Positions 3,504 to 44,533 of a DNA stretch of 64,000 nt are shown one piece after another. The DNA comes from Phycisphaerae bacterium (GTDB taxonomy: Bacteria; Planctomycetota; Phycisphaerae; UBA1845). The notes beneath the pieces were generated by a model. It was not told the origin of the DNA, made no database searches, and was given only the letters and a program-made list of their open reading frames with translations. Where the stretch lies: contig CAXXGO010000006.1 of NCBI GenBank assembly GCA_963666835.2, positions 1,440,001 through 1,504,000 of the forward strand. The letters run 5' to 3'. Numbering within the stretch: the stretch's first letter is position 1; each line of letters begins with the position of its first letter. The position numbers were made by a program, and so were the translations under genes.

Positions 3504-3896
3504 TCAGGCTTCGTTGCCGGCGCCCGGCTTATCCACGTCTGACGACGACTTTCCTGGGTGGGCCGCAGTATCGAGTGCCTCGGTGATGGCAATATGGCGG
3601 GCGAGCAGCGTGACTTCGCGCTGCAGCCGACGCAGGCGTGAATATACCATCAGGAATCCCGTCATCATGACGACAACGGCGCAATACAGAATGAGATCGG
3701 CTCCGCGACCGATGCCCAGCCTACGCGCCGCGGCTACCGTAAGCTCGGGGAAGGCCATCGCGATGCCGGCCGCGAGCCACAACAACGCCCAGAGGATCCC
3801 GTCCCGCCGGGAAACGATCCCCCGTGCTATCGCCAGGATAGTGACAATAAAAAGGCATAAGAGAATACCAAGCGCCAGGATCTGAAAGGCGTTCAT
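3504..3896 (-). CDS. DUF2304 family small membrane protein
   Basis: LWLAAGIAMAFPELTVAAARRLGIGRGADLILY...LQREVTLLARHIAI pattern; ATGA overlap with the upstream GT2 gene. Confidence 0.85.
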   Translation of the reverse strand: MNAFQILALGILLCLFIVTILAIARGIVSRRDGILWALLWLAAGIAMAFPELTVAAARRLGIGRGADLILYCAVVVMMTGFLMVYSRLRRLQREVTLLARHIAITEALDTAAHPGKSSSDVDKPGAGNEA

Positions 3897-32888: not shown

Positions 32889-33670
32889 CGCCGGTTCCAG
32901 AGAGGTGGTGGGTGCAGATTCGCGTCACTCCACCGTTCTGCGAGCAGCGTTTCACTCGTCGAACTGCGGGCACTTCACGTACCGCAGTGGCACAGGCGAG
33001 ACTACCAACACGTTCAAAAAACCGGTACCGGTTCCGTTTCCCGAGAGCCGCGCCCCACCTCAGGTACTGCTGGAGATTTTTCTTGTCCTCGACGATCCGA
33101 ACCGCTACGATTGTATATGAGCCTGCGTTTTTCGGCCGTTGCCGAGAGACAGCGGGGCTCACCGACCTGATCACCAGGAGCCGGCGGAAGTTCGGAAGGA
33201 AGGGACATGCCCGCGGCATTGTTTTGCAGGAGTCGTCGGGCATCTTGCTGAACGAAGTTGGCCTTCAGAACATGGTGGAGGTTTGGTCTGGCAAAGGGCA
33301 GGGGCATTTCAAACGGCGCCCCGGATCAATGGCTGAGTGGTGCAGATTATCCGTAAGAACCCGAGTGCCGTGGCTGGATACTGTCCGCAACGTACTTGGG
33401 TAACCTCAGAGAGGGGCGGGCTCCGCACCCGCCCCTCTCCTTAATTAGCAGGTTGTGGCGCCGGCGGACTGCCACGTCTTCCACCGGTGCGCGTAATCTG
33501 ATCGCAGAGTGGGCCGGGGAGTGCCCCGGCAATCGTAGCGTCGTGTTTTTCGCCCGGCGTAGCGTTTGGGCCGGCACCTCTTTGGCAAAGTACGTGCAGC
33601 GCCCCGTGCACTTTGGGCGGCGAGTGCCAAATGGAATGACATGCATCTGTTTTTTTGGAGGTCAAGGACG

Positions 33671-36310
33671 ATGAAAAAACGACAAGTCCGCGTAAAGCCG
33701 GCAGTCGCGAGAATGGTGTTTGTAGCGGTTGCGGTGTTCTGTTGGGACAGCCAAGGCGCATCGAGTGATCCCGAGGGAGTTGCCCCACTTTCTGAACAAG
33801 GCGAGGCAATCCCCTGCGCATCTTGGCCAACCGGAGCCGACGTTCGAAACGGCGCCTGCGGGCGCACCGTGGGGGCTTGCTGCGCCGCCGACGGCAGTTG
33901 CACACCGGATCTGTCACCCCAGGACTGTGACACCACCGGTGGCGCGTTCCTCGGTGTCGGCACCACGTGCGCGCCAAACTGCTGCCCGCCGCCGGAGACG
34001 GAAACGGGGGCGGACGCAGCTTGCGACATCTACGCGTGCCACGACGGAACCGACTGGGTCGCCCCCTACGATCTGTGCGGGGCGAGCGATCCGGGCGATC
34101 CAGACTGTGACGTCAGCGCCGGCGAGACTTGCCTGCTCCGCGCAACCGGTCCGACTGAGTATGCCATCGATATACCAACATACGGCGACCCCCCGAACGT
34201 AATCACGTTCATGGGAGACAGTAGCGGTCACGAGCCGTACTTCACTTCTGAAGACGGCGACGACTGCAACCTCGGGAGCGCTGCCGACCCCGGCTGGTAC
34301 GAGAGCTTCGTCGTTACGAACAATGACGGCCCGGAGTACGATTGCGCGGTCGTCACGTTGGATTTATGCTGCACCGATCCGATTCATATTCCGGCCTACA
34401 TCGTGATGAAGGACTGCTGCCCGTGTCCGGGTGGAAGTTGCTGGGTCGAGCTCGATCGACGCGCCGACGGCAGTGCCAAGTATGGCTGGGGGCCGGACTG
34501 CGAAGTGGAGGTCGACGGCGTGGAATACTGCTGCCAGGAGGGCAACTTTGTCGGCCAGTTCATGGTCAGGTCGGGCCGCCATTCCTGGCAGATTGCGACT
34601 GGTCGGATCTGCGAGGGCACGATGCACGGTTGCGAGACCGATGACGACTGTGATCCGGGCGTGTCGTGCGTAGACGTAGCGGGGCCGTACACCGGTCACA
34701 TCACCGTCGAAGCCTGTCCGCGGGCGGCCTGCTGCTTGAACGCATGCAGCGACTCGGCTTCGCCGAACCTGGTACCTTGCTGGGACGACAGTGATTGCCC
34801 GGGTGCCGGGGCTACCTGCAATACTACATGCGAGGTTCGCACGCGGTTGACCTGCGATCTAGACCACGGGCAATTCCTGAAGTTCGAAAGCGGTACCGAA
34901 GAGACGTGCTCACCGAACCCGTGTGTTTGGGGCGTTTGCCTGTTTCCTGATGGAGTTTGCGATGATTCGGTCGCTTTTGACACTGAGGTTGAGTGCGAGG
35001 CGTTCGGGGGTGTGTTTTACGGAGGGATAACCTGTGATCTCGTGCCCTTCGGATGCCCGTTCGAGAGCAGCAGCACCTGCAAGGAGGAATGTCCGGACAG
35101 CGAGATTGTCATGAGCGACTTGGCCAACGAGATCCGGATCGCGGACGACTTCCGCCCGGCCGGCACTCAGATAGGTGAAATCTGCTGGACGGCGGGATAC
35201 TACGGCGGCAACGATGAGGTGGGCGAGTTTGAGTGTTCGAGCAACCCGCCCTGGGGCGCCTGGGTCGTGCGTTTCTATCAGGATAACGCTGGTCTACCGG
35301 GCACAGAGGTCGGACCGGCCGGGGGCCAGGAAGTCATTATTCTGGCGTCGAACCATCACGGCGGTACAAGCCGCCTGTGGGATTATCACGCGATTCTTCC
35401 CAGTGCGGTGGACGTCAATCCGGGCGACTGCTATTGGATGGAGCTTACCGGCAACGGTGAAGGCCCGGATGGCTGCCATACATACTTGTCCACCGCCATC
35501 GAGGGCAACGACTACAGTATGTGGGACAACCTCGAGTACGGATCCTACGGCCCTGAAGACGCGAACAATGTGGACATCGTCTTCTGTTTGGACACGGGGC
35601 TCTCTGGCACCACTGATTGTGACGATGTTGTGGCAGCTTGCTGCACTTGTCCGGGTTGCACGCCGGATTTGACCGAATCGGAATGCGTTAGCGATCTGGC
35701 CGGCGTCTGGCGGTTGGGGCACACTTGCGCGACCGCAGCCTGTCCCGACGTCGCTCCGCACAACGACGACTGTGAGAATGCCGAGATCGTTGCGGGAATG
35801 GACAGTTGGCGCTGCCGCGGCGGCCTCAACGACGGCGACCCGTGCGATATCGCTAATTGTCACAGCGACTGCCCGGATGACGGCGACGACATAGGTCGGT
35901 GTATTGGTTATCGCATCATCACATTTGACAACGTCTGCGCGGCACGAGAGAACGAGCCGCCCACAAGTTGCGGGGGAGTGGGCGATCTGCATTACGACGT
36001 CTGGTACCGGTTCACCCCGCAGATAAGCGGCGTGTTGACGGTTTCGTTGTGCCCATCCGATGTGAGCGACGGAGCGCTGTGGGATACCATGATAGCGGTC
36101 TATGATACGGTCACATGTCCGGTGACGGCCGGTGACGAGATCAAATGTGGCGACGATGAATGCGACTTCGCCGGCCCATCGGAGATTACGCCTACGACAG
36201 TCTACGCGGGCCTGGAGTACCTGATTCGCATCGGAGGTTGGTCATCGCCGGCAACCTACGGAAACCCGCGCGGTTGGGGTGAGGTGGAGTTCTCCTTTGC
36301 GGATGGGTGA
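33671..36310 (+). CDS. Large secreted Cys/Asp-rich repeat protein, N-terminal part (ends at an in-frame TGA)
   Basis: SD GGAGG/AAGGA and signal peptide; GACC...C...GG.F.G.GT.C repeats; IADDF module; NDDCENA...DVWYRFT...DTMIAVYD...YLIRIGG module. Confidence 0.8.
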   Translation: MKKRQVRVKPAVARMVFVAVAVFCWDSQGASSDPEGVAPLSEQGEAIPCASWPTGADVRNGACGRTVGACCAADGSCTPDLSPQDCDTTGGAFLGVGTTCAPNCCPPPETETGADAACDIYACHDGTDWVAPYDLCGASDPGDPDCDVSAGETCLLRATGPTEYAIDIPTYGDPPNVITFMGDSSGHEPYFTSEDGDDCNLGSAADPGWYESFVVTNNDGPEYDCAVVTLDLCCTDPIHIPAYIVMKDCCPCPGGSCWVELDRRADGSAKYGWGPDCEVEVDGVEYCCQEGNFVGQFMVRSGRHSWQIATGRICEGTMHGCETDDDCDPGVSCVDVAGPYTGHITVEACPRAACCLNACSDSASPNLVPCWDDSDCPGAGATCNTTCEVRTRLTCDLDHGQFLKFESGTEETCSPNPCVWGVCLFPDGVCDDSVAFDTEVECEAFGGVFYGGITCDLVPFGCPFESSSTCKEECPDSEIVMSDLANEIRIADDFRPAGTQIGEICWTAGYYGGNDEVGEFECSSNPPWGAWVVRFYQDNAGLPGTEVGPAGGQEVIILASNHHGGTSRLWDYHAILPSAVDVNPGDCYWMELTGNGEGPDGCHTYLSTAIEGNDYSMWDNLEYGSYGPEDANNVDIVFCLDTGLSGTTDCDDVVAACCTCPGCTPDLTESECVSDLAGVWRLGHTCATAACPDVAPHNDDCENAEIVAGMDSWRCRGGLNDGDPCDIANCHSDCPDDGDDIGRCIGYRIITFDNVCAARENEPPTSCGGVGDLHYDVWYRFTPQISGVLTVSLCPSDVSDGALWDTMIAVYDTVTCPVTAGDEIKCGDDECDFAGPSEITPTTVYAGLEYLIRIGGWSSPATYGNPRGWGEVEFSFADG

Positions 36311-37066: not shown

Positions 37067-38440
37067 ATGTCCAGGACCCCGCGGTATGTTGCCGAGGGCA
37101 TCCGCCATGCAACGATTAATGGGCATCGGTTTCACCTTCGGCTCACCGATCCGACCCAAGAGAACTTCCTTTGGATCGACGGCCGGTCCCCGCCGCTGGT
37201 ACTCGACCAAGTGGCCGCGGAGTTCGTCGGATACCTCATCGATTCGATGTGGAAGTACCAGCAGGGGGCCGGGGATGAAAGCGACAAGGTCCGCGACGAA
37301 GTGGTCGAACGCATGTTCGAGCAGTACGGCCGGGCCTGGGCATTTGGCCGACAGCGCGTAACCCGCCAACGCATCCGGGCCGATTTGGACCGGATCTTCG
37401 GGACGTTAATGGTCGCGGCCGGTGGCGGCTGCCCGTTCGAGACGGGGCTCAAGACTCAGGAGATTCATCAGGAGGACTGGTCAGCCCCTGCGCGCATGGA
37501 CTTGGCAATCACCTATCGCTGCAACCTCAACTGTTCGCACTGCTACACCGGCGGCCCGCAGGAGACCGAGGAGCTTTCGCTGGATGATTGGAAGCGGGTT
37601 TTGGAGAAGCTCTGGCAGATCGGTATCCCGCAGCTCGTGTTTACCGGCGGGGAGCCCACCCTGCGCGAAGATCTCGTGTCTCTGATCGCCGAGGCCGACG
37701 AATTTGTCACCGGGTTGGTAACTAACGGGACGCGGTTGGCCGAGCTGGCCGAGCCGCTCCACGAGGCCAGCCTCGATTATGCCCAGGTCACCTTGGAGGC
37801 ACACGAGCCGGAGAAACACAATCGAATGGTCGCGGCCGGTGACGAGGACGCGTTTGCCCAGACGGTAGCCGGCATTCGCAAAGCCCTTGAAATCGGGATG
37901 GAAGTAGCGACTAACACGACACTCACCAGTGAGAATGCCGCTGGGTTCGAGGAGCTGTTGCGGTTTGGCAGGGACCTCGGCCTGGCTAACATGGCCTGCA
38001 ACTCGTTGATCTGCAGCGGCCGGGGTACCGCGGCCAAGCGTGACGACAGTCTGACCCCTAAAGACCTGAAAGGCATCTTGACTGCCGCGAACCGTACGGC
38101 GCAAGAGCTGGGCATCAACCTGCAATGGTACACGCCGACGTGCTACCATGAGTTGAATCCGTTGGAGCTGGGCTTCGGTCCTAAAAGCTGCTCGGCCGCG
38201 GCCCACAACATGACCATTCAACCGGACGGCACGGTTCTGCCCTGTCAAAGCTGGCCGGAGGCAGTGGGACGTATTCTGGAGGACGACTGGGGGAGCATCT
38301 GGGAGCACCCAGTGTGTCAGAAGCTCCGCCATCACGGCTTCGGCAAAGATCGCGCCGAATGTGCGGAGTGCGATCTGCTGGCGTTGTGCGGGGGCGGCTG
38401 TCCCCTGGAACACGGACAGATTCGCAAGGAGGGACCATGA
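37067..38440 (+). CDS. Radical SAM/SPASM protein with N-terminal PqqD/RRE-like domain
   Basis: CNLNCSHC, FTGGEPTL, TNG; SPASM CSAA...PDGTVLPC...CAECDLLALCGGGCP; N-terminal LVLDQVAAEF...VVERMFEQYG...IRADLDRIF; SD GGGAGG. Confidence 0.92.
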   Translation: MSRTPRYVAEGIRHATINGHRFHLRLTDPTQENFLWIDGRSPPLVLDQVAAEFVGYLIDSMWKYQQGAGDESDKVRDEVVERMFEQYGRAWAFGRQRVTRQRIRADLDRIFGTLMVAAGGGCPFETGLKTQEIHQEDWSAPARMDLAITYRCNLNCSHCYTGGPQETEELSLDDWKRVLEKLWQIGIPQLVFTGGEPTLREDLVSLIAEADEFVTGLVTNGTRLAELAEPLHEASLDYAQVTLEAHEPEKHNRMVAAGDEDAFAQTVAGIRKALEIGMEVATNTTLTSENAAGFEELLRFGRDLGLANMACNSLICSGRGTAAKRDDSLTPKDLKGILTAANRTAQELGINLQWYTPTCYHELNPLELGFGPKSCSAAAHNMTIQPDGTVLPCQSWPEAVGRILEDDWGSIWEHPVCQKLRHHGFGKDRAECAECDLLALCGGGCPLEHGQIRKEGP

Positions 38441-39399
38441 ACCGCTACGCTCTGCTGATCGGCATCGTCACCGGCATCACTCTGGTCCCCACCGGTGCAA
38501 CAGCCGACACCGGAACTTATGAGATTTCCGAGTACCGCGTGACGCTCGTGCCGCTTGAAGACGGTGTTGTCGAGATCACCTACTATCAGGAATGGCGAGT
38601 CACCGGCGGGAACATCCCCTGGATCACCGTAGGAACGGCTAACCGGAGATTCACGGTTCTACCCGACAGTGCCGGCGGAAGCGCCCGCAGCGTTACTCCG
38701 AAGAGCTCCGGCAACTGGTCCGGGGTACACATCGCGCTGGACAGAGAATACCTGCCAGGCGAGATTTTCGAAGTAAGTTTCAAGATCCGCCAGCGCGGGC
38801 TGTTCTATCAGGCCGACACGGGCTACCGGCTCGATTTCATCCCCGGCTGGTATGACCGGGGCAAGATCGGGAATCTCACCGTTGCGTTGGAGTTCTTCAC
38901 CGAACTGACCGGGGTCTCGGCCGGCCCGGAGCCGAGTGAAACAGCGCCGCAGCAACTGGTGTGGGAGCGAACCAACTTGCAGCCTGGCGAGCGGTTTCGG
39001 GTTGGCGTAACGTTCCCGCCGACTCTGTTTCCCGACAATATCGAGCTGGCGGAGACCTCACCCTACGACAAACAGGGCGGTTCGCGCGTCTCGCCCGTCG
39101 TTGGTTCCCTGCTGTTTTTTGCCTTCCTGGTAGTGATCGTTGTCATCTTGTTCGTATGCGCTAAGGGCGGACGTGGGAGCGACTACGGCGGGGGAGGAAA
39201 CGTCAGTATCGCAGGCATCCATGCGGCAACCGGTGGCCGGGTGGTCTCGTGCGCCTGTGCATGCGTGGCCTGTGCTTGCGCATGCGCCTGCGCCGGAGGC
39301 GGCGCCGCGGGATGCGATCGCAAACTGACACGCACCTGCCCATTGTGCGCATACTGCGAAGAAGAGGACTGTCCGCTACGAACTGGGACCCGACGTTAG
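38437..39399 (+). CDS. DUF2207-like single-pass membrane protein with Gly/Cys-rich (CA)n tail
   Basis: Signal peptide; beta-rich ectodomain (YEISEYRVTL...DGVVEITY); TM LLFFAFLVVIVVILFV; tail SCACACVACACACACAGGGAAGC...CPLCAYCEEEDC; ATGA overlap and SD AAGGAGG. Confidence 0.85.
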   Translation: MNRYALLIGIVTGITLVPTGATADTGTYEISEYRVTLVPLEDGVVEITYYQEWRVTGGNIPWITVGTANRRFTVLPDSAGGSARSVTPKSSGNWSGVHIALDREYLPGEIFEVSFKIRQRGLFYQADTGYRLDFIPGWYDRGKIGNLTVALEFFTELTGVSAGPEPSETAPQQLVWERTNLQPGERFRVGVTFPPTLFPDNIELAETSPYDKQGGSRVSPVVGSLLFFAFLVVIVVILFVCAKGGRGSDYGGGGNVSIAGIHAATGGRVVSCACACVACACACACAGGGAAGCDRKLTRTCPLCAYCEEEDCPLRTGTRR

Positions 39400-39604
39400 A
39401 GGACCAACCGACGACCGAACTTCAGCCCAGGCTAGAAAGAAGGGACGATAACTCCGCAAGATCGCACCGCGCCGCGTATTCGGCGTTTTCAATCTCCGGT
39501 TGACGGTGCTAGAATCTCCTCGATGGGTCGACGATTCATCTTGCTGTGAGGGTCTGCGCCCATTGCCGATAGCCGATAAGCCGGTCATCGAAGGGAAAGA
39601 AGCC

Positions 39605-42600
39605 ATGAAACAACGGGCATTTCGAGGAACCGTAGCGCAGGCATCCTGCCTGCACACGGCTGCACAACTTCTGTTGTTGATGTGCGCCGTTCTGGCGATT
39701 GATTCACCGGTTGTGGCCGACACTTACGTGGTCGACTTTGACGGCCTACCGGCAGACTACCGGCTTTCCGGTCGGGACTATGCCGGTCTGGACTGGGAGT
39801 TGGGTAATAACGACGGCGCGTGGTATGTGGCCGGCCCACCGAACAATCCCCATTCAGGCACTAAGAACATCTACAACGGTTACGGCAGCACCCTGATCGG
39901 TATCGGGTTTCCCGGTCCCGTTGACGTCCTCGGTGCCTGGTTCGGCCAGCACGGTGCCAGCGGGTGGGCGTCGCTCGGAGTACGGGTCCACGGATTCCGC
40001 GGCGGGGTCGAGGTTGAAACCACCGGTTGGTTCCGCGATGTCTGCGGCGAAGCAACTTGGTTTCCGATAAGCCTGTACAATGTCGATCGCATCGTGATCG
40101 AGTCGGACCCGATCTTGCAGGAAATCGGCATTTTCGGGATGGACGACTTGACGTACCGCGATTCCGAACCGGGCGATCTGTTGGCGATCGTCAAGGATGA
40201 GGACACGGGTTTAGCGCTTCCCGGCGCTACGGTAAGCGTGCTTGGAATCGAGGGCGAAACCGACTGGCAAGGTTATGCGCTTTTCAGCGGCATTCTATCC
40301 GGAGAGGTGCTCGCCGAAGCGAGCCTGGACGGATACTACAGCAGCGAAGCGTGGGCCAATGTCGTCCCGAACTCCGGCACCATCGCCGTGATTCGCCTCA
40401 AGCCGGAGCTGACCGGTTCAGACCCGGGCATAATAGAGGTGCGCGGTCGTTGGTTTGAGCCGGGACGAACCACCTACTTCCTCCACGGCATCTCCTTGGA
40501 AGAGCCGATTACGACCCGAGTGGACTGGAAGAACCACACCCCGGGGCTGTTGTCCTGGCTGACTCCATGGGGCGTGATCGACCAGCCATGGATCGACCCG
40601 GCAGTCAGCCGGACGTTCGATATGGGCATGGACTTCCCGCCGGATGGGGTGCTCCGAGTTGAGGGGAGCAGCAACGATGATCCGACCGTGTTCACCGATC
40701 GATACCTGGCCGGGTTGAAGGTTGTCTCCGAGCCCACCGGGTTCCCGGAGCTGCTGGTCGGACACGTACCCTTCGCCGACACCCTGACGTACCAGGGGAG
40801 TTTCGAGGTCGACGTTGTCAAACTGGGGATCGATCCCGCCGCGATTCCCGAGGCCATCCCCGGATTCGGCGGACGCGTTTTGGGATTCCTGGCGAAGAGC
40901 AAACTCGCCGCCAAGATGACCGGCGACGGCAAAGCCGAAGCTGAACTCGAACTACCCGAGGCGCTGGGCAAGTGGGAGGTCGCCGGGATCGAGATCGACA
41001 CGAAAGTCAGTGGCAAGGCTCTGTGGGAGTATCGCCGGGACGAGTGGCTGCCCGGAGGGGAGGCCGTCGTGGGCGTTGAAGGGAAGTTCCAGACCCAGCC
41101 GTCCTACACGGTCTTTGTGGTCGGCCCCGTTCCGGTCCCGGCATACTGGCGAGGATCACTCGGCATTGCCGCGGAGGGGGCGCTCACTTTGCAGGGCTGG
41201 GCCGGACCGGCGGAACCGTCGTTCCTCGCCGCTCTCAAGCTCGAGCCCAAAGTGGAGTTCATCCTGGGGGTCGGCGTGGCCGACGCCGTATCGGCCGAGG
41301 GCGTGCTGGGCGGATCGCTGGCGTGGGAATTCGAGGCCGTCCCCGCATGGGAGACGAAAGCGGTCAAGCTCGGCCTGGCCGGCAGCCTGCGGATTACCGT
41401 GTTGGTGTTTAAGTATGAGCAACCGCTACTGAATTACGAATGGAGTCTCTACGAGAGCCCGTCCCGGTTCGAACAGCAGGGGGATCCGGCCGCGCAACCC
41501 GTTGAGCCGGAACTGATGGACCGCGATTACCTCGGTCGGGGCTACGCCGTGTTCGTCGGTGACGGGGCTGCCGAACAGATCCGTTCGCTGAGTGGCGGGA
41601 CCGTAGAAGCGCCTATTCAGACGAACGTCTTTCCGGAGTCGAACCCGTTTCTGGCGAACCTGGGCACCGATCTGTCATTGGCCTGGCTCTACGACGACCC
41701 TTCCCGGGCGGCGGTGAACCGAACGGAGGTCGTCTATTCGGTGTGGGACGGAGCAAACTGGTCTGCGCCGGCGGCGATCGACGATGACGGGACCGCAGAT
41801 TTCCATCCCAAGATTGCGGCCTTGCCGGACGGAGACGCCTGGGCAACGTGGATGGACGTCAAGCAGGTGCTGAGCGCGGACGCCACCGTTGAAGACATGC
41901 TGGCGAACCTCGAGATTGCGGTCGCCCGTTACGATTCTGATAGTGACGTCTGGTCGTCACCGGTGGTCCTCACGGACAATGTCCACCTGGATCAGAGTCC
42001 GCGAATCGCGACCGCGGCCAACGCGACCGCGATGCTCACCTGGGTGAGCAATACCGGCGACGAGCTGCAGGGTACCGCGGCCTACCCGAACGATATCTAC
42101 TTTTCGCGCCATGACGGCACCAGTTGGTCCGCCCCCGCGGCGGCTGTATCCGGCGTACCATCCGTAATCAAGAGCGCCATGAGCTTCGACGGTACCAACT
42201 CCGTGATTGTCTACTCTGCGGATACCGATGGAGATGACGCGACCCCTGACGATCGCGAGCTGTACGGTCTGACGTTCGACGGCACTACCTGGTCCGCGGC
42301 AACGCTGCTCACGGATAACGAGATTGAGGACGCCAATCCGCAGGTAATGTACGACACCTCACTACCGACTCCGACGCCGTTGGTCTTCTGGTATCGCGAC
42401 GGTGAGATCGTCATGTCCACGGATCTTGATCTGGACGTCTATGACACGGTAGTGTCTCTTGGAGCGTCCTCTTCCGGGGCGGCGGATTTCCACGCAACGC
42501 GCGGCGCCGACGGGCGCATCGCCCTTATCTGGCAGGACATCAGCACTGAAGGTGTCGATCTGTGGTACGTCTACTACGACCCAACCAGCGCGACCTGGAG

Positions 42601-44533
42601 CAAACCGCAACAGCTCACCGCTGATTCCGCCATGGAGAGCGCCCCCAGTGCGTCGTTCGACGCGGCCGACCGGCTGGTCGTCGCATGCGATAAACGCGAC
42701 ATCCACCATGAGACCCGAACACTCTCCGTTGGCGGCGAGGATTTCGTGGTCGACAATGTTCCGGTCACCGGGCAAACCGACCTCTATGAACTTAGGCACG
42801 AGATCGGCACGGATCTGGCGATTGCCGCGGAAGACCTCAGTGTTCTTCCGGAAAACCCCAAGCCCGGCATCCTCGCCACCTTGACGGCCAAAGTGCGCAA
42901 CATCGCGGACTTGCCCGCTACCGATATCGACGTGGCCTTCTACGATGGGAATCCTGCCACAGGTGGAACGCTGATTGCGACCGGCACCTGCGCCGGCACC
43001 CTGGTCGGTGGAGACGTTTGCGAAGCAAGCGTCGGCTGGACCGTGCCGGCATCAACCAGCGGCCACACCGTCTACGTGGTGGTGGATCCGGATCAAGTCA
43101 CCGGCGACGAAGATCGCACCAACAACACGGCGATACTCGGGGTGATGATGCCGAACCTCACGGTTTCGAGCCTGTCTGGCGTTCCAGTTGCTCAGGATTG
43201 GCTGGTAACGGTGCACGTGGAGAATAACGGAGCCCTGCCCGTTGAAAACGCCGAAGTTGTGCTCCGCGACGGCGATGCAAGCGGAACCGTGCTGGATACC
43301 GCGACGATCGCAGAGCTCGCCCCCCGAAGTCGGCAGGCTTTGCTGCTGACGTGGTCGTCGGCCCCGCCCGGCAGACTTACCGCCTTCGCCACAGCCGACG
43401 CGACGGACACTATTGCAGAATTCGACGAAAGTGATAACACCGCCACCGTCCTTCTCGAACGCTTCTCCGGCTTCGGTCCCGATCCGGACCTCGACGGCGA
43501 CACCGACGTGGACTTGGACGACTACAGCGTATTCGCGCTGTGCCTGGCCGGTCCGAACGTTGTGGTTGCTCCGGCTCCCGTTACCGAAGAGCAGTTCAGA
43601 AACGCCGACCTGGATGAAGACGGTGACGTCGACCTGGCCGACTTTGCCGCGTTCGAGAACGTGTTCTCCGGGGCATCACTGTGGGGAGCCTGCTGCGGAA
43701 TGAACGGCGACGTCTGCAGTGAGGTCACCGCGGCAACCTGCACAGAAGGCGGCGGAACTTTCCAGGGCATCGGCACCGAGTGCGGGCCGGACACTTGCCC
43801 GTACCCCGGCGCGTGTTGTGATCCGGAGGACGGAACGTGCAGCGAAGTCACCGAGAGTGCGTGTGTGGCCGGTGGCGGTTCGTTCCAGGGTATCGGCGTT
43901 GCCTGTGCATCCGACGTATGCCCGTTCGGCCGGTACAGTAACGAGATCGAGTTCATTACCGGGTTCTTCGCGCAACACTCATACGGCGCTCTTGCTGACG
44001 ATCTGACCCTATCCGGAACCGGCGCGCGCAGATTGGTCTACTATGATCTGGCCGTCTACGGTGCCGGCGGCGGCGAATTCGATGTGACCGCGACTCTGTA
44101 TACGGACTGTCCCGGCAACGGAGGCACGGCGATTTCCGGCACGACCGCCACTTGGTATGATGTTCAGGACGACGGAAGACCCTATATCCTGCAGGCCACC
44201 ATCGTCAACTACGTGACAATCCCCGATAGCGTGTGGATGGTCGTGGACTTTTCCACCCCGGAGGCCGGCTGGATCATCGCGGAAGAAGCGGAACTGGGGT
44301 CGACGGCGGACGTGTTCGGCATCAATGTCCCACCCTGGGGCTGCAATTACTACCTGAGCGAAACGGTTTACGCCGGATTCTGGGCGAACCTCGATTGCGT
44401 GGCCGAAACGACCGCAAGACCGGCCACCGCCCAGGCCGTCGAACCAGCCGTCGGCACCATGGTCAAGATGGTGGAGCCGTTCGAAGAGGGCCTCGCCGGT
44501 TTGGAGGACGGTGACAATCCGAAGGCTCCGTAG
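39605..44533 (+). CDS. Very large secreted multidomain protein (Ig-like, beta-propeller-like WS.P repeats, two CARDB-like, dockerin-like, GACC repeats)
   Basis: About 1640-aa ORF; LAIVKDEDTGLALPGATV; repeated WSAPAA; VYVVVDPDQ...NNTA; DLDGDTDVDLDDY/DLDEDGDVDLADF; two GACC repeats; LADDL module. Confidence 0.85.
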   Translation: MKQRAFRGTVAQASCLHTAAQLLLLMCAVLAIDSPVVADTYVVDFDGLPADYRLSGRDYAGLDWELGNNDGAWYVAGPPNNPHSGTKNIYNGYGSTLIGIGFPGPVDVLGAWFGQHGASGWASLGVRVHGFRGGVEVETTGWFRDVCGEATWFPISLYNVDRIVIESDPILQEIGIFGMDDLTYRDSEPGDLLAIVKDEDTGLALPGATVSVLGIEGETDWQGYALFSGILSGEVLAEASLDGYYSSEAWANVVPNSGTIAVIRLKPELTGSDPGIIEVRGRWFEPGRTTYFLHGISLEEPITTRVDWKNHTPGLLSWLTPWGVIDQPWIDPAVSRTFDMGMDFPPDGVLRVEGSSNDDPTVFTDRYLAGLKVVSEPTGFPELLVGHVPFADTLTYQGSFEVDVVKLGIDPAAIPEAIPGFGGRVLGFLAKSKLAAKMTGDGKAEAELELPEALGKWEVAGIEIDTKVSGKALWEYRRDEWLPGGEAVVGVEGKFQTQPSYTVFVVGPVPVPAYWRGSLGIAAEGALTLQGWAGPAEPSFLAALKLEPKVEFILGVGVADAVSAEGVLGGSLAWEFEAVPAWETKAVKLGLAGSLRITVLVFKYEQPLLNYEWSLYESPSRFEQQGDPAAQPVEPELMDRDYLGRGYAVFVGDGAAEQIRSLSGGTVEAPIQTNVFPESNPFLANLGTDLSLAWLYDDPSRAAVNRTEVVYSVWDGANWSAPAAIDDDGTADFHPKIAALPDGDAWATWMDVKQVLSADATVEDMLANLEIAVARYDSDSDVWSSPVVLTDNVHLDQSPRIATAANATAMLTWVSNTGDELQGTAAYPNDIYFSRHDGTSWSAPAAAVSGVPSVIKSAMSFDGTNSVIVYSADTDGDDATPDDRELYGLTFDGTTWSAATLLTDNEIEDANPQVMYDTSLPTPTPLVFWYRDGEIVMSTDLDLDVYDTVVSLGASSSGAADFHATRGADGRIALIWQDISTEGVDLWYVYYDPTSATWSKPQQLTADSAMESAPSASFDAADRLVVACDKRDIHHETRTLSVGGEDFVVDNVPVTGQTDLYELRHEIGTDLAIAAEDLSVLPENPKPGILATLTAKVRNIADLPATDIDVAFYDGNPATGGTLIATGTCAGTLVGGDVCEASVGWTVPASTSGHTVYVVVDPDQVTGDEDRTNNTAILGVMMPNLTVSSLSGVPVAQDWLVTVHVENNGALPVENAEVVLRDGDASGTVLDTATIAELAPRSRQALLLTWSSAPPGRLTAFATADATDTIAEFDESDNTATVLLERFSGFGPDPDLDGDTDVDLDDYSVFALCLAGPNVVVAPAPVTEEQFRNADLDEDGDVDLADFAAFENVFSGASLWGACCGMNGDVCSEVTAATCTEGGGTFQGIGTECGPDTCPYPGACCDPEDGTCSEVTESACVAGGGSFQGIGVACASDVCPFGRYSNEIEFITGFFAQHSYGALADDLTLSGTGARRLVYYDLAVYGAGGGEFDVTATLYTDCPGNGGTAISGTTATWYDVQDDGRPYILQATIVNYVTIPDSVWMVVDFSTPEAGWIIAEEAELGSTADVFGINVPPWGCNYYLSETVYAGFWANLDCVAETTARPATAQAVEPAVGTMVKMVEPFEEGLAGLEDGDNPKAP

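Follow-up and report, generated by a model that had tools for sequence, protein, structure and literature searches.

Side by side in the genome of a Phycisphaerae bacterium (Planctomycetota, GTDB lineage UBA1845) lie a gene for a radical S-adenosylmethionine (rSAM) enzyme and a gene for a single-pass membrane protein whose C-terminal tail alternates cysteine with alanine, and the two occur together, in either of two gene orders, across many lineages. Both genes stand on the forward strand of the window, by which we mean the whole 64,000-nucleotide stretch that was analyzed (assembly GCA_963666835.2, contig CAXXGO010000006.1, positions 1,440,001 to 1,504,000), and coordinates given without a locus name refer to it. 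The enzyme (37067..38440, + strand, 457 aa) is an open reading frame (ORF) with matches to Pfam PF04055 and PF13186 and, in an AlphaFold2 (AF2) model, an N-terminal domain resembling the recognition element (RRE) of enzymes that make ribosomally synthesized peptides carrying post-translational modifications (RiPPs). Its partner (38437..39399, + strand, 320 aa), defined from the ORF and an AF2 model, belongs to an unnamed family. An earlier note, drawn from the letters of the window alone, had proposed that the enzyme acts on the tail. All the elements it described are present in the sequence, and its proposal is supported: of the refuting outcomes it had named that sequence analysis can reveal (an N-terminus lacking the PqqD fold, unlinked homologs, a conserved small precursor), none turned up. 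We consider it an evenly balanced proposition that the pair represents an unnamed system, widespread among anaerobes, in which a dedicated rSAM enzyme rewrites the invariant (Cys-Ala)n cytoplasmic tail of a full-size membrane protein. The more specific reading, that this enzyme modifies the cytoplasmic tail of the membrane protein encoded downstream of it and most probably does so by forming thioether cross-links, we favor tentatively, with a confidence that falls a little short of even.

Linkage of enzyme and partner across lineages

Within the window the two genes are joined by the junction that the earlier note had described. The partner's ATG at 38437 sits inside an ATGA (38437-38440) that also holds the stop codon of the rSAM gene, and a Shine-Dalgarno sequence, AAGGAGG, precedes it at 38426-38432 (the whole element, read from the sequence, spans 38426..38440, + strand). 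By this overlap the two genes are translationally coupled.

The association was followed from both of its members. Scanning species-representative genomes with a profile of the partner gave 14 loci, from Zixibacteria, Aminicenantes, Krumholzibacteria (three loci), Chitinivibrionia, Dehalococcoidia (two), and Clostridia/Bacillota (six), and in all 14 the gene immediately upstream, on the same strand, encodes a homolog of the rSAM enzyme (32-62% identity). The Cys-Ala core is present in 12 of the 13 partner ORFs that are not cut by a contig end; in the thirteenth (L008, near 8858) a Gly-rich run is followed by the motif in a different frame, which points to a frameshift in the record, so that L008 was rejected as a case of a Cys-free partner. 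Scanning with the enzyme alignment, from which 80 metagenome loci were kept at 35-59% identity, gave an adjacent same-strand ORF with a Cys-Ala tail in 63 of the 80, placed downstream of the enzyme in 16 and upstream in 47. In two further loci the tailed gene stands upstream at a distance of 1.6-1.8 kb, and in 13 of the other 15 a contig end cuts off the relevant side. Three other candidates for a Cys-free partner were also rejected: the ORFs of L073 and L081 run into contig ends, and the L066 partner (near 3776) equals that of L070 up to ...PRPPRSG, where the two contigs diverge just before the tail. An assembly error or real slippage at low-complexity repeat DNA would explain the breaks in both L008 and L066. 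The adjacency in other genomes that the earlier note had looked to is therefore found from either gene.

The two gene orders go with two forms of the partner. Downstream partners (16 loci), as in the window, are 320-440 aa long and carry tails of the form ...CACACACAGGGxAGC.... Upstream partners (47 of the 80), which we refer to as the second class, are 530-610 aa long and combine a homologous ectodomain (27-103 bits to the hidden Markov model of the partner) with a transmembrane (TM) helix and a large helical region, and their tail is the end of the protein, reading ...CACACACAGCACACAGGGR or ...CVCACAxCACACACVSCACACAGGGxx (examples, within L026-L098, are L040:2315-3949 and L027:1955-3649, ...CACACAGGGR). 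In a tree of 85 enzymes, built quickly by maximum likelihood (LG+G4, with support from the Shimodaira-Hasegawa-like approximate likelihood ratio test, SH-aLRT, only), the enzymes with upstream partners form one clade of 54 rows with SH-aLRT 100, inside which the tail subtypes cluster. The tail labels on this tree come from strict patterns, and several rows labeled as having no tail are pattern misses rather than absences; moreover, related sequences share tail labels, so the tree shows consistency rather than independent events. Adjacency survives both the swap in gene order and divergence of the partner to about 25% identity.

Enzyme and partner are the only genes common to all 15 loci (the 14 partner-anchored loci and the window). 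The earlier note had seen no short precursor ORF near the pair, and this holds more widely: when ORFs of 20-90 aa lying no more than 2 kb from the pair were compared over these 15 loci, no conserved cluster that could be a precursor was found, the only clusters being antisense shadows of TPM and LemA genes. Genes for TPM (PF04536) and LemA (PF04011) proteins follow the pair in 4 of the 14 loci (L002, L003, L004, and L007; for example, L002:8912-10114 and L003:1589-2793). At L009:6296-8933, three partner paralogs stand in tandem after one enzyme gene, and the Cys-Ala motif was seen in only the last of them.

The Cys-Ala tail

The partner has 13 cysteines, 12 of which fall within residues 272-312 of 320, bearing out the earlier count of 12 in the last 50 or so residues. 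The core of the tail follows the pattern S-CACAC-V-x-CACACACA-GGG-x-AGC-x-R-K and occupies residues 271-293 (SCACACVACACACACAGGGAAGC; 39247..39315, + strand). Across an alignment of 119 homologs from several phyla, columns C272-C293 are 97-100% conserved, at Cys and Ala positions alike, and the stretches C283-A-C-A-G287 and A291-G-C293 as well as K296 are invariant. Conservation is graded along the distal tail that follows (DRK...CPLC..C....C, residues 294-312; 39316..39372, + strand), where column counts give K296 in 119 of 119 sequences, C301 in 108, C304 in 109, C307 in 52, and C312 in 55; the linker before the Cys-Ala motif and the end after it are variable. The tail is strongly non-random: (CA)3 or longer occurs once in the 6.02-Mb source genome read in six frames (12.0 million residues), and that one occurrence is the partner tail.

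Among the 120 best partner homologs, 115 have the motif in their last 80 residues, and the other five are forms of about 500 aa. Four of these five were aligned, and in them the Cys motif is internal and is followed by a second hydrophobic segment and TPM. Fusion of TPM after the Cys motif, behind a lipobox-like second hydrophobic segment, was noted in P0050, P0051, P0066, P0069, and P0120.

The enzyme

Sequence motifs and Pfam scores together place the enzyme in the radical SAM superfamily and its SPASM subgroup, as its cysteines had earlier suggested. The CxxxCxxC motif for the SAM cluster (C152, C156, and C159; 37520..37543, + strand) is invariant in 37 of 37 aligned homologs, and Radical_SAM (PF04055) matches residues 148-300 at 7.7e-24, with 85.2 bits against a cut-off of 29.5. 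SPASM (PF13186) matches residues 375-436 at 4.6e-9, with 36.9 bits against a cut-off of 21.5. Auxiliary clusters in SPASM domains are bound by the pattern CX9-15GX4C ... CX2CX5CX3C, and the enzyme's cysteines, supported by column counts, have the spacing C375...G388...C393 and C432-x2-C435-x5-C441-x3-C445 (38189..38401, + strand). A signal sequence is absent from the enzyme.

The nearest solved relatives of the enzyme are peptide maturases. Its AF2 model (pLDDT 87.9, pTM 0.89) has its best matches among structures in the PDB to SkfB (Z 28.8, over model residues 20-448) and to SuiB bound to its precursor (Z 28.2; root-mean-square deviation 4.4 over 377 aligned residues, model 15-453 onto chain 5-427); other fold matches include anSME (Z 25), CteB (Z 24), NifB-type rSAM enzymes (Z about 18), and the epimerase EpeE (Z 17.8). 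Comparison of sequence profiles gives SkfB at 3.6e-29, PqqE at 1e-26, SuiB at 1.3e-20, and CteB at 3.6e-12. Of the curated NCBIfam models, 73 rSAM families match the enzyme, every one with a score far under its cut-off: NirJ2 (122 vs 500) and PqqE (TIGR02109, 106.2 vs 381.35) score best, the thioether synthases SkfB (TIGR04403, 62.1 vs 300) and StsB (NF045574, 87.7 vs 625) are also below, and the CrpC family (TIGR04463, rSAM_vs_C_rich) gives 27 bits against a cut-off of 525. AlbA (NF012164) is outside the window enzyme's best 25 NCBIfam matches, and for a class II relative this model gives 80.9, the cut-off being 850. By these scores the enzyme is a member of no named functional family. When residues near the catalytic site are profiled following the available part of a published scheme (PMC10288494), Y160 takes position 1 and Q394 and S395 take positions 5-6; from these positions we make no call between sacti- and ranthi-type enzymes.

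The earlier note had seen the strand-then-helix pattern of PqqD in the N-terminus, and the AF2 topology agrees with it. Residues 12-118 (37100..37420, + strand) are modeled as four strands (12-17, 20-25, 33-37, and 44-46) and then three helices (48-64, 72-87, and 100-118), and they contain the three-stranded sheet and three-helix (winged helix) arrangement of RRE/PqqD domains. The alignment with SuiB starts at model residue 15 and therefore reaches SuiB's N-terminal part; the structures of CteB, anSME, and PqqE align with the enzyme only from about residue 137 on. Two paralogs of the enzyme were scanned with Pfam PqqD, and one (L095:4370-5524) scores over the cut-off (26.7 vs 23.4 bits, residues 50-107), with the other just under it (21.5 bits vs 23.4). 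The N-terminal profile of window-type enzymes aligns in turn with the N-terminus of the L095 paralog (hhalign 97%, E 1.3e-10, 89 columns). On this model the enzyme carries an RRE-like domain with a predicted role in peptide docking.

Paralogs of this kind were noted at about 20 second-class loci (L095:4370-5524, L088:5470-6660, and about 18 more), where a Cys-poor rSAM paralog with 1-4 Cys and without CxxxCxxC comes after the active enzyme, mostly at a spacing of at most 20 nt or overlapping it, and at 381 nt in L088 and 1117 nt in L083; it is probably a non-catalytic docking subunit. Where the RRE-like domain meets the rSAM barrel, the enzyme has an extra cysteine, Cys122 (37430-37432), in a G-x-C-P motif; it is kept in 31 of 37 homologs. 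It is lost in the six enzymes of Clostridial/Bacillota type, which also lack the SPASM CX2CX5CX3C.

The partner protein

The AF2 model of the partner, built from the 119-sequence alignment (pLDDT 81.4), recovers the ectodomain and the one TM helix that had been read from the sequence; the Gly-rich linker and the Cys tail are present in the sequence, and the signal peptide of that earlier description stands by sequence reading, to which the helix modeled at residues 2-15 would correspond. An extracytoplasmic all-beta domain follows (residues 24-195; 38506..39021, + strand; pLDDT about 95+), with the confident all-beta stretch at residues 26-193. Foldseek relates this domain to ribophorin I and to the N-terminal domain of M1 aminopeptidases at E about 1e-7, a likeness that names its fold and not its function. 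The TM helix (residues 220-243; 39094..39165, + strand) covers the hydrophobic columns 225-242 and is followed by K/R. Shortly after the membrane, column counts define a motif, Y-G-x-G-G-x-[IV]-[FY]-[Y]-G-G (residues 250-260; 39184..39216, + strand), in which Y250 is conserved in 115 of 119 sequences, G253 in 116, and G260 in 104, and which is a possible recognition strand for the RRE.

Because the protein starts with a signal-peptide-like segment, has one TM helix, and carries K/R after it, the Cys tail would lie on the cytoplasmic side, beside the enzyme. The forms of about 500 aa, with the order ectodomain, TM helix, Cys motif, second hydrophobic segment, and TPM domain (PF04536), would agree with a cytoplasmic tail if TPM lies outside. 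We take TPM to be outside the cell, as in YgcG-type proteins.

The partner has no match in Pfam or NCBIfam, although it has 924 homologs at E<=1e-3. Two candidate identities were rejected. Protein language-model neighbors of the partner are automatically named DUF2207, which served as a lead only, and Pfam does not bear the name out: DUF2207 (PF09972) has no match in the window partner or elsewhere in the source genome and is weak in 2 of the 119 homologs (best E 0.024), with a class II relative at 14.3 against 24.4. TIGR04222 matches 0 of the 119 homologs at E<=0.1.

Proposed mechanism and its alternatives

The modification that we favor could proceed as follows: the RRE would bind either the tail or the conserved strand next to the membrane, chemistry of the 5'-deoxyadenosyl radical would then cross-link the tail through thioethers between cysteine sulfurs and carbons nearby, and the modified product would stay tethered to the membrane, since neither a protease nor an exporter is conserved next to the two genes. 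A substrate role for the tail, with thioethers as the product, is suggested by the RRE-like domain, by the full SPASM Cys set, by SkfB, CteB, and SuiB as nearest relatives, by the core-peptide-like position of the tail (it ends the protein in the 530-610-aa class, like a RiPP core peptide), and by the published case of CrpC and CrpA, which is compared below. The coupling and kept linkage of the two genes, the near-invariant tail, and the lack of a conserved small precursor ORF speak for this reading as well. Several observations weigh against this reading. The enzyme scores far under every curated NCBIfam cut-off, those of the thioether synthases included, and the chemistry is guessed from relatives at 15-20% identity. 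Searched directly, Pfam PqqD (PF05402) does not match the window enzyme and matches 0 of 11 homologous N-termini at E<=10, and a 21-sequence N-terminal profile run against PDB sequences turns up nothing beyond chance helical matches (E>=0.066), with no RRE among them. One locus, L088, has the enzyme without a tailed protein in about 3.6 kb on either side. The tail is unstructured and of low confidence in the AF2 model (pLDDT 37-48), so the model does not give the docking geometry. Dense CxC motifs are, furthermore, a feature typical of metal-thiolate binding as well, for which no enzyme is required.

If the tail is the substrate, it could also undergo some other chemistry, such as C-alpha epimerization to alternating D and L residues, oxidation that turns Cys into formylglycine or dehydro residues, or some further radical reaction, and the evidence from linkage (14/14, 63/80, and the agreement of tail with clade) would be the same. 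We regard this as unlikely, but as an alternative with some substance: the enzyme is outside every curated functional family, its fold neighbors include enzymes that do not make thioethers (SuiB, which forms a C-C link, anSME at Z 25, and EpeE at Z 17.8), and the strict alternation with invariant Ala would suit a reaction that proceeds residue by residue. However, the best matches in sequence and fold include the thioether synthases SkfB and CteB, no accessory enzyme that hints at a different chemistry is conserved beside the pair, and, going by the available part of the CrpA paper, the only Cys-rich substrates of protein scale that have been characterized to date receive thioethers (PMC13692751).

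Two further explanations do without covalent modification of the tail by its neighbor. The tail may be a metal-thiolate or Fe-S module, in effect a membrane-anchored metallothionein-like segment serving as scaffold, electron partner, or metal store with no covalent change, as its 12 Cys in CxC motifs, its lack of structure when modeled without ligands, and the distal CPxC knuckle kept in 108-109 of 119 sequences would allow; SPASM enzymes themselves handle several Fe-S clusters, and the NifB-type rSAM fold is matched at Z about 18. This we hold to be distinctly unlikely, given that the enzyme has a peptide-docking RRE-like domain and that the second-class tail sits at the extreme C-terminus like a core peptide; Ala is also as invariant as Cys, which metal binding alone does not demand and which therefore argues against pure metal binding. 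Highly improbable, in our judgment, is that the genes share an operon for some other reason, for example an envelope function, while the enzyme acts on an unlinked substrate. The enzyme of L088, with no tailed neighbor, fits such a view, as does the source genome, where the pair is not beside TPM or LemA genes (one and two genes, respectively, about 1 Mb away), unlike in some relatives. Against it stand the adjacency kept through gene-order swap and divergence to about 25% partner identity, the covariation of tail class with enzyme clade, and the lack of any other gene conserved in all loci.

Comparison with known systems

Modification of the Cys-Ala tail would have its closest precedents in CrpC/CrpA, QhpD/QhpC, and the TIGR04222 tails linked to MNIO enzymes, and the earlier note's statement that no characterized system resembles this one needs qualification accordingly. 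Whole-protein modification by rSAM/SPASM enzymes is known from QhpD/QhpC and CrpC/CrpA, so that part does not stand; in the portions of the source available to us, neither substrate is a membrane protein or has a Cys-Ala repeat, and to that extent the statement holds. CrpC (TIGR04463) of Methanococcus voltae cross-links the large Cys-rich protein CrpA, with thioethers detected by mass spectrometry at sites that include ACAGM and CAVD motifs, according to the available text (PMC13692751, September 2026). As described there, the system resembles ours in that an RRE-rSAM-SPASM enzyme is encoded next to a large Cys-rich protein and that the modification of this protein falls in its C-terminal Cys region. 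It differs in the enzyme family, since CrpC belongs to TIGR04463 and the window enzyme falls far below that model, and in the substrate, CrpA being described as having ten 17-residue repeats with C-x-x-Q/D; in the text of the paper available to us, neither 'membrane' nor 'CACAC' is used (PMC13692751). Its Supplemental Data set 1, on RS-associated Cys-rich proteins, could hold relatives. QhpD, cited in the same text (PMC13692751), is likewise an RRE-bearing rSAM/SPASM enzyme, and the intra-protein Cys thioethers it makes are located in a protein subunit and not in a released peptide, whereas QhpC, as far as that source describes it, is a small, soluble enzyme subunit with Asp and Glu as acceptors and has neither a Cys-Ala repeat nor a membrane anchor, and no QhpD-specific model is among the window enzyme's 25 best NCBIfam matches. 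A literature search, with supplements outside its reach, found no description of a cassette of an rSAM enzyme and a Cys-Ala-tailed membrane protein.

Other systems share either the enzyme or the partner architecture. SkfB, CteB, SuiB, AlbA, and StsB combine a docking domain, an rSAM barrel, and SPASM/twitch, and include the best fold and profile matches, but the identity to them is 15-20%, and on their NCBIfam models the scores reach 62-88 bits where the cut-offs are 300-850 (for AlbA the score is that of a class II relative). They act on short secreted peptides that are often encoded together with an exporter or protease, and no such gene is conserved here. Membrane proteins of the TIGR04222 family have been proposed as whole-protein substrates of MNIO enzymes through their Cys-bearing Gly/Ser-rich tails and are thus similar in placing an unstructured, Cys-containing C-terminal tail on a membrane protein with a RiPP-type enzyme adjacent; by contrast, MNIO enzymes are not rSAM enzymes, and the tails, in the part of that study available, have a predicted periplasmic location and lack a Cys-Ala repeat (PMC12452194). 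DUF2207/TPM/LemA modules share with the partner the build of ectodomain, TM helix, and Gly-rich tail. We know of no Cys-Ala repeat and no rSAM neighbor in the case of ordinary DUF2207 and TPM tails.

RiPP-type rSAM enzymes are known mainly for small secreted peptides, with QhpD/QhpC and, in 2026, CrpC/CrpA as the only whole-protein cases. Should the tail prove to be modified, whole-protein rSAM chemistry would extend to an integral membrane protein, which has so far not been described, and the substrate motif is kept in hundreds of uncultured anaerobes of at least seven lineages. The product could be a polycyclic thioether knot of a new kind, a segment of alternating stereochemistry, or an enzyme-built metal-sulfur site, in each case anchored in the membrane. 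Such a modification would tie DUF2207/TPM/LemA-type envelope modules to radical chemistry and would give a first clue to the function of the large protein family that accompanies TPM and LemA and is built of ectodomain, TM helix, and Gly-rich tail; the motif, being simple and repetitive, also offers an unusually clean system for studying SPASM chemistry.

Genomic context

The cassette has likely moved between lineages. In a further 300 genomes from the source's phylum the partner profile has no match at E<=1e-10, a result that shows patchy distribution only, and on the 85-enzyme tree the nearest neighbors of the window enzyme come from other phyla (Krumholzibacteria and Zixibacteria); the two observations together suggest horizontal transfer.

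On either side of the pair, at 33566-36310 (914 aa) and 39500-44533 (1677 aa), lie Cys-rich, secreted-looking ORFs. The 914-aa ORF has no match in Pfam or NCBIfam. Repeated modules of the form CC..G.C....C...GG.F.G.G..C and Asp-rich D-x-D-x-D stretches run through these flanking ORFs.

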